Shown here: piece after piece, positions 1-58,692 of the stretch
How positions within the stretch are numbered: the stretch's first letter is position 1
Layout of the letters: every line of letters begins with the position of its first letter
From: Squalus acanthias
Lineage: Eukaryota
Assembly (NCBI GenBank): GCA_030390025.1
Contig: CM059432.1
Span: 72,170,001-72,234,000 of the forward strand
DNA: 64,000 nucleotides
Direction: 5' to 3'
Notes under the pieces: generated by a model
Databases searched by the model: none
What the model was told of the DNA's origin: nothing
What the model saw: only the letters and a program-made list of their open reading frames with translations
Translations under genes and position numbers: made by a program

Positions 1-59
1 TTGATTTTCAACAGTATCTTACCTAAATTAAACAACGCAGAATGACAATGTCGGACTCA

Positions 60-745
60 GTTGCTAAGGTGGCAGGACAAGTTGAGAAGGCTGTTAAAAA
101 GGCATACAGGATCCTTGGCTTTATAAATAGAAGCATAGAGTACAAAAGCAAGGAAGTTATGATAAACCTTTACCAAGCGCTGGTTAGGCCCCAGCTGGAG
201 TATTTTGGCTAATTCTGGCCACTACACTAAAGGAAGGATGTCAAGGCCTTAGAGAGGGTGCAGAGGAGATTTACTAGGATGGTACTAGGAATGAAAGACT
301 TCAGTTATGTGGAGAAACTAGAGAAACTGGAATTGTTCTCCTTAGAACAGAGAAGGTTAAGGGGAGATTTGATAGAGGTGTTCAAAATCTTGAAGGGTTT
401 TGATAGAGTAAATAAGGAGAAACTGTTTCCAGTGGCAGAAGGTCAGTAACCAAAGGACACAGATTTAAGGTAATTGGTCAAAGAACCAGAGGCAACATGA
501 GGGAAAAAATTATGCAGTGAATTATGATGATCCGGAATGTACTGCCTTAAAGGGTGGTGGAAGCAGATTCAGTAACAACTTTCAAAAGGGAATTGGCTAA
601 ATACCTGAAAATGAAAAAAATTGTAGGGCTATGAAGAAAGAGCAGGGAAGTGGGACTAAATGGTTAGCTCTTTCAAAGAGCCGGCACAGGCAAGATGGGC
701 CGAATGGCCCCCTTCTGTGCTATATCATTCTATGTTTCTGTGATA
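60..745 (+). mobile_element. CR1 (HER1-like) LINE, 3' fragment
   Basis: C-terminal RT peptide QRRFTRMV..LFSLEQRRLRGDLIEVFKI (ORF 258-449); tail GATGGGCCGAATGGCC..CTGTGCTATATCATTCTATG. Confidence 0.9.
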
Positions 746-8360: not shown

Positions 8361-8843
8361 AACCTAGGTATAGTTGAATAGAATGCTTCCTAATTTTTAT
8401 ATTTCTGTCCTGTTAAATATGTAGTAATTAATATTTGTATATATTTGCAATGTGCATATAAGAGATAGTTGAATGTACTGGATGCAGCAAAGGCCCTGAC
8501 GACAGCCTGGCTGTCGTTCTGAATACCTGTGCAACAGAGCCAGCCGCTCCCCTACCTAGCTGTACCAGTACAACTAAATAAGACACTGAACTCTACTCAA
8601 CAATGTGGAAGGTTGCTCAGGTGTGTCCTATCCACAAAAAATAGGATAAATCTAACCCAACCAATTATCAGCCTCGTCCCAGGCATCACTAAAGTAATGG
8701 AAGGAGTCATCAGTAGTGCAGTCAAGCAGCATCAGTAACCTGTTCAATTTGGGTTCTACAAGAGCCATTCAGCTCCAGACCGCATCACAGCCTTAATTCA
8801 GACATAGATGCAAGAGCTGAATGCCAGAGGAAAGGTGACAGTA

Positions 8844-8969
8844 CAAAAGCAAGATACTGCGGATGCTGGAAATCTGAAATAAAAACAGAAAATGCTGGAA
8901 ATGCTCAGCAGGTCAGGCAACATCTGTAGAGAGAGAAACAGAGTTAACATTTTAGGTCGATGATCCTTC
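8844..8969 (-). mobile_element. Penelope-type terminal (pLTR) fragment with degenerate hammerhead motif
   Basis: Same sequence as 16910-17045; flanked by GACAGTA at 8837-8843 and 8970-8976. Confidence 0.8.
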
Positions 8970-9130
8970 GACAGTAGCTGCCCTTGACATCAAAGCCTCA
9001 TTCGACTGAGTATGGCACCAAGGAGCCCTTGCAAAATTGTGGTCACGGAGTTGGGGTGGGGAAGTCAAAGGGAAAATCCTTCAGTGGCTGGAGTCATACC
9101 TGATGCACAAGAAATGGTTGTGCTTGTCCG

Positions 9131-16050: not shown

Positions 16051-16907
16051 TTATAATTTCTCCTGTTGCAACCTGTAAGGGACCCACATTTACTTTTGCT
16101 AATCTTTTCCTTTTTACATACCTGTAGAAGCTTTTACAGTCTGTTTTTAAGTCTCTCGCTAGTTTTATTCTCATTTTATTTTCCCTTTATCAATTTCTTG
16201 GTCCTCCTTTGCTGAATTCTAAAATCCTCCCAATCCTCAGGCTTACTGTTCCTTTTGGCAGCATTATAAGCCTCTTCCTTTGATCTAATACTATCTTTAA
16301 CTTCTCTTGTTAACCACAGTTGGACCACTTTTCCTGTGGGGTTTTTGTGCCATAAAGGAATGTATATTTGTTGTAAATTATGTATTAATTCTTTAAATGC
16401 TAGCCATTGCTTGTCGACCGTCATACCTTTTTAATGTAGTTTCCCAATCTACCTTGGCAAACTCGCCCCTCATTCCTACGTAGTTTGCTTTGTTTAGATT
16501 TAAGACCCTAGTTTCGGATTTAACTAAATCACTTTCAAACTTAATATAAAATTCTGTCATATTATGTCTGCAATATTTATTATTTGTTAGTTTATATTTA
16601 CAATCGTCAAAAAAAAATCAGATCTCAGATTTAAAGGGTCTGGCATATCTCGGTCTGAGTCTTACTTCTGGTAGACTCTGAAGTTATGGCAGGAGTCCAC
16701 TGTAGCATCCATGGATTTTTGAAGTCCTGTTGTCTTGGATCATTCCCAGTAGAATTGAATTTGAGTTCTCATTTCACCTTCAAGTTCCAGACATGTGCAT
16801 AACTAATGAAGCAAGTCTGCACAAAGAAAAGTCAACGTCGTCAATTTCTGTACTCTATTTAGGGAATGAGAATTTGGAGTAGGCTAGCAGAGCATTCATA
16901 CACACCT

Positions 16908-18586
16908 ACACAATAGCAAAATACTGCGGATGCTGGAAATCTGAAATAACAACAGAAAACGCTGGAAAAACTCAGCAGGCCAGGCAGCATCCGTGGAGAG
17001 AGAAACAGAGTTAACGTTTCAGGTCTGGGACCCTTCATCAGAACTGGAAAAAGCTGGAGATGTAACAGATATTAAGCAGGTGCAGAGACAGGGAGGAGGG
17101 GGGGGAGGGGAGGAAGGAATTGAAGGAATATACTGTGCTTTTGTAAGAGGCAGGAAAGATAAAATGTTGCAAATGGGAATGGCAAAATCATACAGCATGA
17201 AAAATGGGGGCAGGGGTTAATAGTTTGAAATTGTTGAACTCAATGTTGAGTCCAAAAGGCTGTAAAGTGCCTAATCGAAAGATGAGGTGCTGTACCTTGA
17301 GCTTATATTGAGCTACATTGGAACAATGTAATAGGCCGAGGACAGAGAGATCAGAGTGGGAGTGAAGCGGTGAATTAAAGTGACAGGCGACCAGAAGCTC
17401 GGTCACCCTTACGGACTGAACGGAGGTGTTCCGCAAAGCGGTCGCCCAATCTGCGTTTGGTCTCCCCAATGTAGAGGAGACCACATCGTGAGCAGCGAAT
17501 ACAGTATACTAAGTTGCAAGAAGTACAAGTAAATCGCTGTTTCACCTGGAAGGGGTGTTTGGGGCCCTGGACAGTGGGAAGGGAGGAGGTAAAAGGGCAT
17601 GTGTTGCATCTCCTGCGCTTGCACGGGAAGGTGCCAGGCGAAGGGGAAGGGCTGTTAGGGGTGATAGAGGAGTGGACCAGGGTGTCGCGGCGTGAATGCT
17701 GAAAGGGGAGGTGAGGGGAAGATGCGTTTGGTGGTAGGATCACGTTGGAGGTGGCGGAGGATGATCCATTGAATATGGAGGCTGGTGGGGTGAAAGGTGA
17801 GAACAAGGGGAACCCTATCATGGTTCTGGGAGGGAGGGGAAGGGGTGAGAGCAGAAGTGCGGGAAATGGAACGGACACGGTCAAGGGCCATGTCAACCAC
17901 AGTAGAGGGGAATCCTTGGTTGAGGAAAAAGGAAGACATGTCGGAAGCACTGGTATGGAAGGTGGCATCGTCTGAACAGACGCGGCAGAGACTGAGAAAC
18001 TGGGAGAATGGAATAGAGTCCTTGCAGGAAGCGGGGTGAGAGGAAGTGTAGTCCAGGTAGCTGTGGGAGTCAGTGGGCTTGTAGTGGATGTTTGTTGAAA
18101 GCCGATCGCCAGAAATGGAGACGGAGAAGTCGAGGAAGAGAAGAGTCGGCGATGGACCATGTGAAGGTGAGGGAAGGGTGGAAATTGGAAGTAAAGTGAA
18201 TTAACTTATCTAGTTCAGGGCGAGAGCAAGAAACGGCACCGATACAGTCATCGATGTACCGGAAAAAGAGGTGAGGGAGGGTACCCGAGTAGGACTGGAA
18301 CAAAGAATGTTCCACAAATCCCATGAAAAGGCAGGCATAGCTAGGGCCCATGTGGGTTCCCATAGCAACACCTTTAATTTGGAGGATGTGAGTGGAGTCA
18401 GAGGAGAAGTAGTTCATTGTGAGAACAAGTTCAGCCAGGCGGAGGAGGGTGGTGGTGGATGGGGACTGGTTGGGCCTCTGTTCAAGGAAGAAGCGGAGCG
18501 CCCTCAGGCCGTCCTGGTGGGGGATGGGGCTGTAGAGGGATTTACAATAGCAAAATACTGCGGATGCTGGAATACAATAGCAAAAT
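16908..18586 (-). mobile_element. Penelope-like retroelement (Neptune-type), 5'-truncated, RT plus GIY-YIG endonuclease, frameshifted
   Basis: RT QIKGVAMGTHMGPSYACLFMG..FFRYIDD (ORF 18070-18417); Cys linker CKRRRCNTC; GIY-YIG NLVYCIRCSRCGLLYIGETKRRLGDRFAEH (ORF 17375-18160); 14-bp TSD ATTCATACACACCT at 16894-16907 and 18587-18600. Confidence 0.93.
17006..17046 (-). ncRNA. minimal type I hammerhead ribozyme motif in Penelope terminal repeat
   Basis: Minus strand: CAGTT-CTGATGA-A-GGGTC-CCA-GACCT-GAAA-CG-TT-AACTC (core boxes, helix II, palindromic AACGTT, helix I AGTT/AACT). Confidence 0.7.
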
Positions 18587-19257
18587 ATTCATACACACCT
18601 GTTCTTGTGTGGTATATTTACCTTTCAAAACATCTTCCCATAAACCAAATGTTCCAAATATTTTGGGGATCTTGTGCAGATGAAGTTAATTTGTTGGACA
18701 ACCTGTGTTTTTGTTAAATCCTAGTATAAAACAGTCAAATTTGCTAGTTTAAAATTTAAAGCTTTGTCAGTGGATTTGTTTTCTTGAGGTTATCTATTCC
18801 ACAGTTGCCATTATTCTCGAATACCACAATGATTTATTTATATGCAGTAGTTTAGGAGTGGCCATCCTTTCAAAGCTCAATTAAGCTCCTGCAGAACCTG
18901 GTAAATGTGGGTTTAATTAAAATGTTACTATGGATATTTTCAATGTAACCTATGCATTGCCTGACTATACCTTGTACATTGCACGCATATTTTTATTATT
19001 ACAGTAAGAGTTTCACTGAACACACTAAGTCAGGAATGCTTATCAATGTAACTTCTAATGTGCTTTTAATTTAAGTTGTGATAACAAAAAAAGCCATCAT
19101 ATTTTTATCATTAAATGTTAGTTTCCAAAATTTGCAATAGTCCCATCAACTAATAATAAAAATTCCTGATTTTAATTTATCCAGATGCAAGAATATGTCT
19201 TCTATAAAGGCCAAAAACAGAAGCTACTGTCAGGGTATACGTTGCCCTTTTCTTCCA

Positions 19258-46399: not shown

Positions 46400-49300
46400 A
46401 ACTTGAGTATCCAAGATGTTCTGTGATCCAGCCAGAACATGTATAAATAGCAACTATGATGTGTGTGTGTGGCAGAAAAAAAGAAAGTAAGATTTCCTTT
46501 TTTAACATCTTAGACAGTTTAGTGAGTAAAAATTCTAAGCTATTGGTGTTGTTTGAGTTGAACTTTTTTGACTTGCTGAGGGAGGCTTCATGTTTGTGCT
46601 GAGACCAGAGATGGATTTTCACAAGATGAGGACTGCTGGTATTACATCTGGATTCAACTAGGCATGGCCAGTGGCGAATGACCACCTGGTCACATGCTAG
46701 TCACCAGAACTTTGACCGTTAGAAAGGCCTCCCTGGACAGTCGTACATCAGTGACCAATCGCTTCAGCAAGGATTACAAATCCACATGGGAATTAAAGGG
46801 AAGAGAAAAATAGATCTTTTAGAATTGTGTCAATAACTGAGGAAAAGCAAGGATTTGGGGAAAGAAATATAAACCAATAAAGAATTAGCACCTTAAGGAA
46901 AGGTTGCAAATCCACACTGGAGAAATAGATCAAAAAATAGATATTTTATCACACAAATGACTGGAAAGAAGCGGTTTTAAGAAGAAAAGATAATTAGTTG
47001 CGAGTTTTGTACAATGATGGCTAAATAGTATACCAAATATATTAAGTAAAAACAAGATGCTGGAAATACACAGCACACCAGTCAGTATCTTATGAAGGAT
47101 TATGCATCTGAAAAGTTATAATCTGCAGATAGATTGACCTGTGTACTTGCAGCATTTTCTGTTTGTATTTCAGATTTTCAGCATTTGCAGCTTTTCTTTT
47201 AAACCAAACATTGAGTTTATCTTTCAATGAGTTAAATATGTAATATTTTTACCTCCAATCAGCCATGCGCTATATTGCATCAATAAATTTGCATTGCAGC
47301 AGTGGATGAACGACTGTTGTAAATGCAGTAAATATCTAAAACCACACTGCAGAAGGATTATCTATGAGGAACGCCATAGGTTGCAAGTTACCTTTGGCCA
47401 TTCTCAAACTCCAGTCTTTAAAAAGTGCTTTTCAGCAGTTACTGCACACCTATGTCTGTAGCATATTCACTTATATCTGTATCTAGACAACAGACTAGTC
47501 TGAGTTTCAATCTGAGAATCTGCCAAGCAGCCTGAAAACGATCTATACTTTCCAGCAGTTGGGATTTTGGTCAGTCAAGAAAATTAGCAAGCACACATTT
47601 CACAGAATCTTGTGTTTTAGGGGCACATTTTTGAACAGTCGGGTACAATTTGTTACTGCTCTGCTAGAGATTTGCAGTGCTGAAGTACCTAATATGTCAC
47701 TTTATAAGAAGGCATCTTTCTCACAACCCAGGTTTACCTTCAATTGTAGGGCTTGTGGAAGCTACCCGTTTTGTGGTTTCCAATGTACATCTAGTTATGA
47801 AGACCTTTCAGCTAAATTTACTTCAGCAATGGTCCACCCACCAACTTCCTGTTGCAGTGGTTCATGTGGACCGGACATCAGCGTTGGATCTTGGGTGGCA
47901 AACTCAGGGTAGTAATGTTCTGCTCGGGGATTCTCCTTCAGTTGCCTCCCTTCTATTGGGCTGGGGGCGGAAACGTCTCCTAGGGAAATGGGTGAAAGGA
48001 AACTGGACGTTTGGATGTTTCAATCACATGGCATTTCGGAGAGAATACAGGGTTTCCGCTGTTCATCTAGTGTTGACTTGTAGATAACGTTTTCCCTCTG
48101 GTTGGTGAGACCCTACTCTGTTCCAGGAAAATCCAACTCTCTGAGCTTACTATGCCAAGTGGTGCATGTTTGGGGAATGGTGTGTGTCTAGGTCCATTCT
48201 CTCTGCAATATGCAAGTTATAACTTAGAATATCTGCAGTGATTGAGCTGTGTCTAAAGCCCAGCTGTATTTTAGTACAGACCGCCATACCCTTCCATGAA
48301 CCGTTTTGCAGGCTTGCTGGGTTTTCATCCGTTCATGCCTAGTTTTATGCAAGCTATGTTGATCTCCCTTAGTTCCTAACTGGGACCTTAATTTAGTCCT
48401 TAATAGGTTTTGGATCTGCTGTTTGAAACTTTTCAACTGTGTGATTTATAGCTTCTTACTTGAAAGATGAGATTATTAGTAACACTAGTTTCAACCCATA
48501 GGGTTAGTGAGCTTGCAGGTTGTAGTTGTAGTTGGATTTAGCAAAAGGATACTGTAGTTCTTGGGACTCGAGCAGGATTTCTCCCATCTTAAGATCTCAA
48601 TTTCATTTAAGGTAGGAGAATGGTGTACATTCTTTCATCGTGCACTCTATCAATCAAATGAGAATTATAGGTTTCACTGTTAAATGCCACAGAGTACTTT
48701 GCTTTTATGTTTACTGAACTTGGGACTTTAGGAAGTCCTGGAGGTTATTTTTATTATGGAAAGAAGACCTTGGGTAACCCAATGATGGAGGAGGATATAG
48801 TAAAATAATGTACTCCACAGTACCATTAGTTAGTAAACATCCCAGAAATTTAGTTAAGTCTGTTTTACTCATTCCATTGCTACTTCTTGGGCTTCTTTTG
48901 TTTCTATTCATCGTGTCTGTAAGGCAGCTACATGGAGAACCACTCACACTATTTAAATTAGGCCAATGCTCAGAACAGTGTTTTGGCAGCAAGGATTGGG
49001 ATATCACAGGTAGAGCCTCCTTCCTCCTAAATTGGTACGACTTTGGTATGGCTCCTATGGTGTGTGAGGGATGCCTGAATACCAAAGGAAGTAAGATTAC
49101 CTATCTCATAGCATCTTCGTGATTCATCGAATGCCAACTTCCCACACACAACATGCTGGGGTGGTTGTTGTTTTAAGGTTAGGAAACTTTGAAGGAGCCC
49201 AATTATAGGAGAGTGTTGGTTAGAAGGAACTGCAAGTCCTGTAACCATTTGTATATCTGGAGCAAGGGGTCACAAGGCAGGCGATCGCAATAATGTCCAA

Positions 49301-56990: not shown

Positions 56991-58072
56991 CTGATTTTCT
57001 CTGCTCCTCTCCTGAAGACGCTTGCTCTTGCTAGAGTATAGTTACATTTGTACTGGTGTTTCTTTGATATCTCATCCAAATGGTCGCTTTTCATAAGCAA
57101 GTCCAGACAAAGAATGTTGGCAGGCCGTGTGACCACATTTCAGCCCAATCCTTTCTTCATTGAATAGTGATCAAAAGAGGGAACTCGGACGATTTTTTTC
57201 TCATTTCAAAACTGAAAAGTATGTTGAATTGACTCTTTTTTTTCAAATCGCTTTAAAGGGAAGAAATGAGCACACACTTGCACATCCAATTAATCCATGG
57301 CATGCACTGTTCCTATATTCCTGTATTTTTCTACAAAGCCCCGTTGAATTTGTGGCAGAGTTGCATAAGATTTTGGGTGGTTTCTGTTCCTTTTTCATGG
57401 AGCAAAACATCCCTAAATCACAGATGAAAAATGAGCAAAAATGCTTTGCTTATCAGTTTCCTTATGTAGACGTAACATTTATTAGAATTAAATGAAACCC
57501 TGGTTCTAATATTTTGTTTTGTAACATGCAAAGCTTGAAATTGTAGGTTTTTCAACTGTCTCTGTATTTGCATATTTTGGTACTGCAAAAAAAACAGATA
57601 AATGATGTGTCCGGGTACTTTGGGTAGAACTACTTCTGTAAGCTTACATTGTTCCATTTTGAAACTAAAATATTCTGGAATGACCTATCTATACCATGTA
57701 AACCCTGGCAACATAATTACATATTTATCTAGCATCAGGTAATATTGCCAGAGAACATGCAAGTATATTGGTTACTGAAACCCATCTTCTTCCTTTCTTG
57801 GGTTAATTCTGGGGGGCAGGCTGGGGGTTGTGGCGCAGTTTCTGGGAGAAGCCAAATGTATGTGCTAGAAGCCCGGTTTTGTCTACTCAATCTCCTCTTG
57901 GGCTCATAGGAAGACCTGCCTCCAGGCAAACTAATGTGATGTTGTTCAGTTAAACCTGTTGTGAGTTGAACTTGTGTTAACGCCATGGGTTTTCTTAAAT
58001 TAGCAAATGCCATATTTTCAAGCATAACTGGGCATATGGTACAACTAAGAAAGTGTTGTGTAAATGAAGTGG

Positions 58073-58117
58073 CAGATTCTGACGAAAGGTCATCGACCTG
58101 AAACGTTAACTCTGTTT
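58073..58117 (+). ncRNA. minimal hammerhead ribozyme motif in a ~94-bp Penelope-type insert (58080-58173)
   Basis: CAGATT-CTGACGA-A-AGGTC-ATC-GACCT-GAAA-CG-TT-AACTCTG; TSD TGGCAGATTC at 58070-58079 and 58174-58183. Confidence 0.7.
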
Positions 58118-58379
58118 CTCTCTCCACAGATGCTGCCAGACCTGCTGAGTATTTCCAGCATTTTCTGTTTTTATGGCAGATTCACTGTCCTGTTCACCTG
58201 CAATAGATTATAGAAGCTTAGTCATTTTGCACCGCAGCTCTTCTATGTGTGTAGTAAAATTGTAATAGTGTTGCCTGCATTCATCTCATATTCACATAAA
58301 CTTTGAGGAAAATATTACAATCCAGATTGAATTAATTTATTCACATTAACTTGTGGGTATGTGTCTTGCATCACAGTGA

Positions 58380-58692
58380 AATGCAAATATAATTAGATTA
58401 GCAGTCCATTTACTGGAGGTGATGGTGTCAGCATGGTAGAGAGCATGTGCAGGATACTGCAGGTGTCTTTCTTCCATGAGGGGCTGACGTCAGCACTGGA
58501 CAAGTTGAAAGCTTTACATAGCAGCTGTAATCTCCATGCTGCATTGGAGAGAATAGCCAGGGATGTGCTTACAGTTGATATGGCAACAAATGCTTGGGGT
58601 CAAAGCACTATAAACAGTGTACTTTCAATATTGTTTTATTGGAGTGCACCGACTGACATTTCCAGCAAGGAACACTGGGTGATTGAGTGAGT
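58380..58692 (+). promoter_or_regulatory. candidate alternative promoter with short first exon
   Basis: Octamer ATGCAAAT 58381; palindrome GCTGACGTCAGC 58483-58494; X-box-like GTTGATATGGCAAC 58574-58587; TATAAA 58609-58614; donor TGA|GTGAGT (GT 58687-58688). Confidence 0.45.

Follow-up and report, generated by a model that had tools for sequence, protein, structure and literature searches.

A short Penelope-derived hammerhead insert in Squalus acanthias and a recurrent 5′ stop of related copies at the ribozyme edge

The window analyzed here, a 64,000-nucleotide stretch of the Squalus acanthias genome (GCA_030390025.1, contig CM059432.1, positions 72,170,001 to 72,234,000 of the forward strand), carries a 94-base insert derived from the terminal module of a Penelope-like element (PLE). 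The insert is flanked by two copies of TGGCAGATTC, at 58070-58079 and 58174-58183, the only plus-strand occurrences of this sequence in the window, where a single reverse copy is found at 47516. Positions within the module are numbered from the predicted hammerhead cut, GUU|A, at 58107/58108. The features considered are as follows.

58070..58079, plus strand: the 10-bp target-site duplication on the left side; its final three bases agree with element positions -31..-29 as well and provide the C3 of the core
58080..58173, plus strand: insert of 94 bp, corresponding to positions -28 to +66 of the terminal module of the PLE and ending in the tail-less 3′ class; all 94 nt agree with genomic copy L001 (100%)
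58174..58183, plus strand: the duplication on the right side, identical to element +67..+76 at 7 of 10 bases
58079..58107, plus strand: hammerhead motif of the minimal type I, made up of CUGACGA, an extra A, a helix II of 5 bp, GAAA and a palindromic ACGU, with cleavage predicted to follow 58107
58115..58129, plus strand: strong splice-acceptor-like stretch in the insert (pyrimidine run and CAG), simple score 7.5, the sole site above 2 in 58000-58300
16908..18586, minus strand: 5′-truncated, frame-broken PLE of the same family, with part of the reverse transcriptase (RT; RVT_1 E 0.0027), linker CxxxRCxxC, GIY-YIG region, pseudo-LTR (pLTR) and tail
8843..8982, minus strand: another short stub from this module, which retains the tail and has a damaged hammerhead core

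In view of the target-site duplication, the Penelope module can be considered to have been retrotransposed here as a discrete product. Its boundaries are blurred, given that the left duplication ends in TTC, as does the element at -29, and the right one fits the continuation of the element; the span of -28..+66 becomes -31..+75 once the bases common to the duplication are counted. The initial annotation had described a 10-bp duplication around a 94-bp insert that ends like the Penelope element at 16908-18586, and both observations hold, the match to that element being 87.7% over 106 nt. The 16908-18586 element is itself flanked by a 14-bp duplication (16894-16907 and 18587-18600), inside which extra tail copies lie at its 5′ junction (18544-18586). 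An older partial piece of the module is present at 47047-47190 of the window.

Elsewhere in the genome, full-length matches of the insert are 97-100% identical to it (40 scored candidates). In L115, the module continues without a break into the ORF; it therefore serves as the leading part of the full-length unit as well as the 3′ terminus of inserted copies, an arrangement also found in Anolis PAc (PMC11167929). The module is a terminal repeat of an element encoding an RT and a GIY-YIG endonuclease (EN), as in EN+ PLEs, with Pfam matches that are just under the curated cut-offs (in L278, RVT_1 E 1e-6 and GIY-YIG E 6e-4); inverted arms, partial tandems and duplications of variable length, the other attributes of EN+ PLEs, are found in this family as well. 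The linker motif CxxxRCxxC is present in four of the five long frames printed, with one C changed in the fifth. As a Zn-finger-like Cys motif between RT and EN defines this type (PMC8557442), the sequence points to an element of the Neptune or Nematis clade; a Poseidon label was rejected once the linker motif had been found.

To estimate the abundance of the module, 160 stretches of 10 kb, spaced evenly over contigs C1-C14 (1,598,300 bases of the 3.7-Gb genome), were sampled, yielding 96 module pieces, which extrapolates to about 180,000 copies genome-wide. Of these pieces, the 77 that begin at +20 or upstream of it and extend to +55 or beyond were used for the analysis of ends, and 19 were left out. 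About 30,000 copies (32,500) are estimated to start at -38..-29, like the insert. A second set consisted of the 67 distinct copies among 71 listed exact matches to +18..+52 (3 were not fetched and 1 was a duplicate). Both samples were chosen without regard to the 5′ end.

Every part of the hammerhead core named in the initial annotation is at its place: CUGACGA at 58079-58085 (the C lying inside the duplication), the extra A at 58086, GAAA at 58100-58103 and CGUU at 58104-58107, with helix II (58087-58091/58095-58099) predicted to pair with a probability of 0.94-1.0. Among the attributes of minimal hammerheads (min-HHRs) as defined in PMC4209133, the insert sequence has the core CUGANGA/GAAA/UH, an extra base before helix II, helix II and a palindromic helix III. 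Helix I, for which 4-5 bp are expected, is 4 bp long in native copies; in the insert it can be drawn with 2 bp in register or, if a bulge is allowed, with 6 bp, and both versions are predicted to form with a probability near zero. Accordingly, the proposal that the target site supplies one strand of helix I stands insofar as such a helix can be drawn (6 bp with one bulge, -7.1 kcal/mol together with helix II), but it is not predicted to form (probability 0.00; the minimum free energy, MFE, is -20.8). For the dimer, a fold in which only helices II and III are scored has -13.5 vs an MFE of -32.5 kcal/mol. Folding energies have little bearing on hammerhead activity, and native module copies are likewise predicted to misfold in the same calculation, so that misfolding is weak evidence against activity. 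An Rfam scan of the window (E≤1) produced three weak, unrelated hits, with no hammerhead and no family over the insert. According to the text of PMC4209133, single min-HHRs did not cleave in vitro. Xenopus dimers are described as lacking cleavage in vitro in 8 of 9 cases. The single copy at 58080-58173 would be a dead-on-arrival stub, without self-cleavage or re-transposition.

The 5′ ends of the module copies are concentrated just upstream of the ribozyme. These ends were taken from BLAST local alignments and are accurate to a few nucleotides. In the random sample, 14 of the 41 copies at risk end in -38..-29, a 7.2-fold excess in rate (p 2e-7), which is still 3.0-fold when the comparison is made with -28..-1 alone (p 0.003). 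The pattern set gave 18 of 44 (ratio 12, p 6e-12), or a ratio of 4.4 (p 2e-5) relative to -28..-1 alone, and then no ends at all from -36 to -93. The modal ends are -32/-31, with a spread over about 10 nt. By contrast, there is no excess of ends at the cut site: 6 of the 77 random and 5 of the 67 pattern copies end at -3..+4, and the hazard at the cut, computed from both samples, is about 0.012-0.014 per nt, similar to background. The initial annotation regarded a random spread of 5′ breakpoints, along with a lack of cleavage, as the outcome that would count against its reading; the breakpoints proved to be non-random.

The 3′ ends fall into two classes, +59..80 and +95..104, which together comprise 42+32 of the 77 copies in the random sample and 34+31 of the 67 in the pattern set, and which reflect the known, optional PLE tail of 30-40 nt. 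Tailed and tail-less stubs are both centred on -32 (16 vs 16 copies, p 0.77); since stubs of 100 nt and 135 nt share the same edge, the edge depends on position and not on stub length. Target-site duplications were assessed in 30 short copies whose identity was 85% or higher, five of these being flagged as inverted. Among the 25 non-inverted ones, 16 show an exact duplication of at least 8 nt, vs 0.17% of 600 mismatched flank pairs, and 17 show one of at least 7 nt, vs 1% of the control pairs. Six head-to-head inverted insertions (L010, L012, L027, L152, L252 and L258) have one or both arms that also end at about -32..-29, and their inversion junctions recur near +20..+24 and -13.

A different picture emerges for copies that include the beginning of the ORF. 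A query spanning +125..+285 produced 39 hits other than itself, the first 20 of which were fetched. Six of these end before reaching the edge (one at +31, one at +44 and four at about +115, three of the latter sharing one junction), and 14 pass it; as two pairs are units of the same arrays, the latter amount to 12 independent copies. None of the 12 stops at -38..-29, all ending at -65 or beyond, compared with 18 of 44 in the pattern set (Fisher p 0.006; the ORF-start and pattern sets represent different subfamilies) and 14 of 39 in the random set (Fisher p 0.022). Within the ORF-start subfamily alone, 5 of 7 random first-pass copies stop at the edge, vs 0 of 14. That ORF-start copies never stop at the hot spot and that the stop is independent of stub length are the new observations made here. 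A pause intrinsic to the sequence should equally halt an RT that has already copied the entire ORF, and so these observations show that the stop is not of that kind. The hot spot is likely to represent a 5′ end of the template. Under this interpretation, full-length copies starting at -33 were expected; this expectation failed (0 of 12), which requires the assumption of a second kind of template.

Further, the cut site is copied intact in the stubs, so that the template must have been uncut or religated. Taking these observations together, we consider it fairly probable that the insert was produced by the RT/GIY-YIG protein of the element, which initiated synthesis immediately downstream of the ribozyme and continued to the likely 5′ end of an uncut element RNA, some 33 nt upstream of the cut. 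In such a scheme, the protein would bind the pLTR-ORF junction, reverse transcription would start internally at about +66 or +103, by analogy with the Anolis element PAc, and copying would reach the end of the uncut element RNA at about -33, leaving a stub; -33 would then be the transcription start, and the long seamless copies would come from another template, possibly circular or read-through RNA. For PAc, uncut RNA is described as the main substrate, with two internal RT starts, and ribozyme cutting as dispensable in vitro (PMC11167929); a circular template for partial tandems has been proposed by Cervera and de la Pena (PMC4209133).

The sequence around the edge is compatible with a transcription start there. 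Long copies have an Inr-like CCAGTT at -35..-30, and in 49 of the 52 long copies printed a TTAA box lies 29-32 nt upstream of A(-33), a regularity inherited from few common masters rather than seen in 49 independent cases, and missing from the L304/L305 subfamily. Reading CCAGTT and TTAA in this manner relies on the Inr and TATA consensus. The same bases can also be read as a branch point, a pyrimidine tract and CAG. In two stubs, L015 (-34) and L189 (-33), the start lies unambiguously 5′ of the AG. There was no clear enrichment of an extra, cap-derived G before the stub starts, the preceding base being G in 3 of 6 rows at -33 and 4 of 11 at -32, where some rows are long copies with point changes.

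A tentative extension of the run-off explanation invokes two templates. Uncut transcripts beginning at about -33 could give rise to stubs resembling strong-stop products, whereas cut and ligated circles could give rise to seamless partial tandems that continue past -33 and restore the upstream TATA-like promoter, which would be lost on copying from a linear template. If true, this would be genomic evidence of why PLEs keep the hammerhead, with the start mapped to a few bases. For the role of the hammerhead in the Penelope cycle and the origin of the partial tandems, a stop confined to the first pass is a modest clue; the sharpness of the stop provides exact coordinates for assays of RNA ends, circles and in vitro run-off. 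Tandems of 136-140 nt were considered as possible template jumps from +103 to -33 and rejected, as the four relevant loci inspected turned out to be other structures (two further hits were not fetched); L306 consists of two stubs with 31 unrelated bases between them and L307 is a minisatellite. The three independent insertions L303-L305 contain an internally doubled module with a period of 137-139 and a junction at about +70|-65, around 1400-1660, and form a subfamily with two hammerheads side by side; the upstream module of L305 starts at -33.

The principal competitor of run-off at an RNA end, which we regard as rather unlikely, holds that the RNA extends further upstream and that the protein of the element, bound to the ribozyme of the initiating module, or a nick made by an endonuclease terminates copying at about -33 in that module only. 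A block or resolution of this kind predicts a position-fixed stop on the first pass equally well and needs no second template. It would also fit the protein assistance described for the PAc ribozyme (PMC11167929) and the EN-mediated resolution invoked for PLE tails (PMC8557442), and a fold in which -34..-27 pairs with +19..+29 is predicted. However, the spacing between the Inr-like sequence and the TTAA box would then be a coincidence, and, arguably, a structural stop should be expected near +29 rather than -33, given that the RT meets the 3′ arm of the helix first.

Splicing appears improbable as the source of the edge. Here, the edge would be a 3′ splice site (CAG|TTC at -32/-31), with the stubs copied from spliced RNA, and there is a precedent in Penelope of D. 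virilis, whose intron is described as ending at the 5′ side of helix I (PMC4209133; PMC2377424). The pyrimidine tract and CAG of the long copies and the modal ends at -32/-31 are compatible with this possibility, but no upstream exon is shared among the stubs: in 17 of the 25 non-inverted ones, a duplication of at least 7 nt lies only 0-11 nt from the start, and the spacers differ. In addition, the ends are spread over about 10 nt, and no GT..AG joint ending at the edge was found among the 15 of 24 joints listed. Splicing is disfavoured because of the lack of a shared leader exon and because L015 and L189 still contain sequence 5′ of the AG, which would be intronic.

Equally doubtful is the possibility that the module is a self-propagating mini-retrozyme or SINE, such that solo copies are transcribed, self-cleave as dimers and are re-mobilized by the PLE protein. 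The initial annotation proposed that the module is retrotransposed on its own in the manner of a tiny retrozyme or SINE; of this proposal, the discrete retrotransposition product is borne out by the duplications, but self-propagation is not, considering the intact cut, the lack of a stub lineage and the rarity of tandems. Discrete size classes with duplications and largely conserved core bases across the module copies are what a retrozyme or SINE would show; PLE-derived non-LTR retrozymes have been proposed for vertebrates (10.64898/2026.07.22.740005); the genome contains a few tandem ribozyme arrays; and 98-nt back-joints occur in contigs of the DNA runs X6, X7 and X10 (5, 14 and 1 contigs, respectively). 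Yet, no SINE-type diagnostic variant separates short from long copies, and there is no stub-specific lineage, 0 of 9 variable columns reaching p<0.05 (lowest p 0.07; comparisons of 9 v 25 and 18 v 26 copies, with low power). The unit ends away from the cut site, which is copied intact. Only 14 non-minisatellite tandem or duplicated places were found (from 39 and 33 rows), vs about 30,000 stubs, a count that is a lower bound since the pattern requires two exact 15-mers, and the tandem units inspected are not dimers of stubs. The insert itself is not accompanied by a second consecutive ribozyme unit, the window containing one plus-strand core in total. Finally, PAc is described as needing RNA downstream of the RT start (PMC11167929), which the stubs lack, and the inactivity of single min-HHRs in vitro (PMC4209133) also speaks against autonomous cleavage. 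A fixed start at the ribozyme edge provides no evidence for a new retrozyme or SINE family.

Some arrays in the genome involve the hammerhead region more directly. A 52-bp minisatellite on the minus strand (G000:C6:68552718-68552940) repeats a unit that consists of the hammerhead alone, about -33..+19, in which helix I has 5 bp; according to the search table, it conforms to the tandem definition of non-LTR retrozymes and is a better candidate for cleavage than the insert. Three other minisatellites (G000:C5:145694724-145695548, C9:8551973-8552861 and C22:28901429-28901667) consist of 28-45-bp units that span the cut and lack the CUGA half of the core.

Random 5′ truncation, with the start at the core due to chance or an alignment artefact, is very improbable: although the background of ends between -28 and +20 is high and PLEs are described as heavily 5′-truncated (PMC8557442), the p values in the two samples refute it at the level of the family, high identity continues through -38 in several references, and the duplications abut the edge; the single insert copy may still have arisen in this way.

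The closest parallels come from four kinds of systems. The min-HHRs in the pLTRs of metazoan PLEs share with the module of the insert the unpaired base before helix II, a G-C first-pair region, palindromic 15.2/16.2 and a short helix I, and most of these motifs are dispersed single copies, "probably related to truncated PLEs" (PMC4209133, Cervera and de la Pena 2014); the text of that article describes no solo copies that begin at a fixed 5′ position, nor does it mention cartilaginous fish by name. The Anolis Poseidon element PAc (Frangieh et al. 2024, PMC11167929) is similar in having the ribozyme at the pLTR-ORF junction, two 3′ classes 30-40 nt apart and insertion from uncut RNA; unlike PAc, the element described here has the Zn-finger-like linker motif of the Neptune/Nematis type, and the 3′ junction of the insert shows 7/10 microhomology, whereas PAc is described as initiating without homology. 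The text of PMC11167929 contains no analysis of the 5′ ends of genomic PAc copies. The EN+ Neptune and Nematis PLEs (PMC8557442) resemble our family in the RT, the linker Cys motif, the C-terminal GIY-YIG domain, the pLTR, partial tandems, inverted arms and tail; the sharp start of the stubs found here goes unmentioned in the text on those elements. Non-LTR retrozymes (10.64898/2026.07.22.740005; PMC7229834) are, likewise, derived from PLE pLTRs, non-coding and equipped with a type I hammerhead, and dispersed monomers are recognized; however, they are tandem repeats with the ribozyme in at least two consecutive units (10.64898/2026.07.22.740005), whereas the insert is a single dispersed unit. 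Outside subscription journals, Repbase/Dfam entries and supplements, we found no literature describing solo PLE modules that begin at a fixed 5′ position.

With respect to the host context, the comparison of 146 non-PLE open frames of the window with Pfam resulted in two hits, both below the cut-off (74 shorter frames and 7 others were left out), and two simple exon scans revealed nothing recognizable. As these scans identified no host gene, the sense orientation in a host pre-mRNA and the alternative promoter suggested in the initial annotation are at most candidate features; of promoter-like sequences, only a CRE-like 8-mer at 58485 and TATAA at 58609 were seen, 300-430 bases downstream of the insert. 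In contigs of organisms C (X7) and E (X10), the flanks of the site are joined to 26-30 insert bases; over 370-450 bases of flank, there are 9-30 differences. Comparison of these sequences indicates that the insert is likely to be old and shared between species; this is likely rather than proven because the joints fall just under the 31-base bridging rule and are among the 15 of 81 joints listed. By itself, the insert matters little: it is an ordinary, old, short PLE stub, probably fixed and likely inactive.

Several derivatives of the family were also noted. L295 and L296 (G000:C1681:538811-540878) contain a 767-bp tandem unit that comprises the pLTR and the ORF start (about -311..+461), possibly a tandem derivative that is non-autonomous and in which the presumed binding region for the protein is retained. 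Nine copies (L094, L099, L204, L047, L095, L044, L247, L261 and L255) belong to a derived repeat family with an inverted piece of the module; repeats of the L094 type have about +21..+86 reversed and joined to -13..+64, lack the CUGA core and continue into several hundred shared non-coding bases. The acceptor-like site is located at +22 of the module; with approximately 180,000 copies, it could seed cryptic exons.
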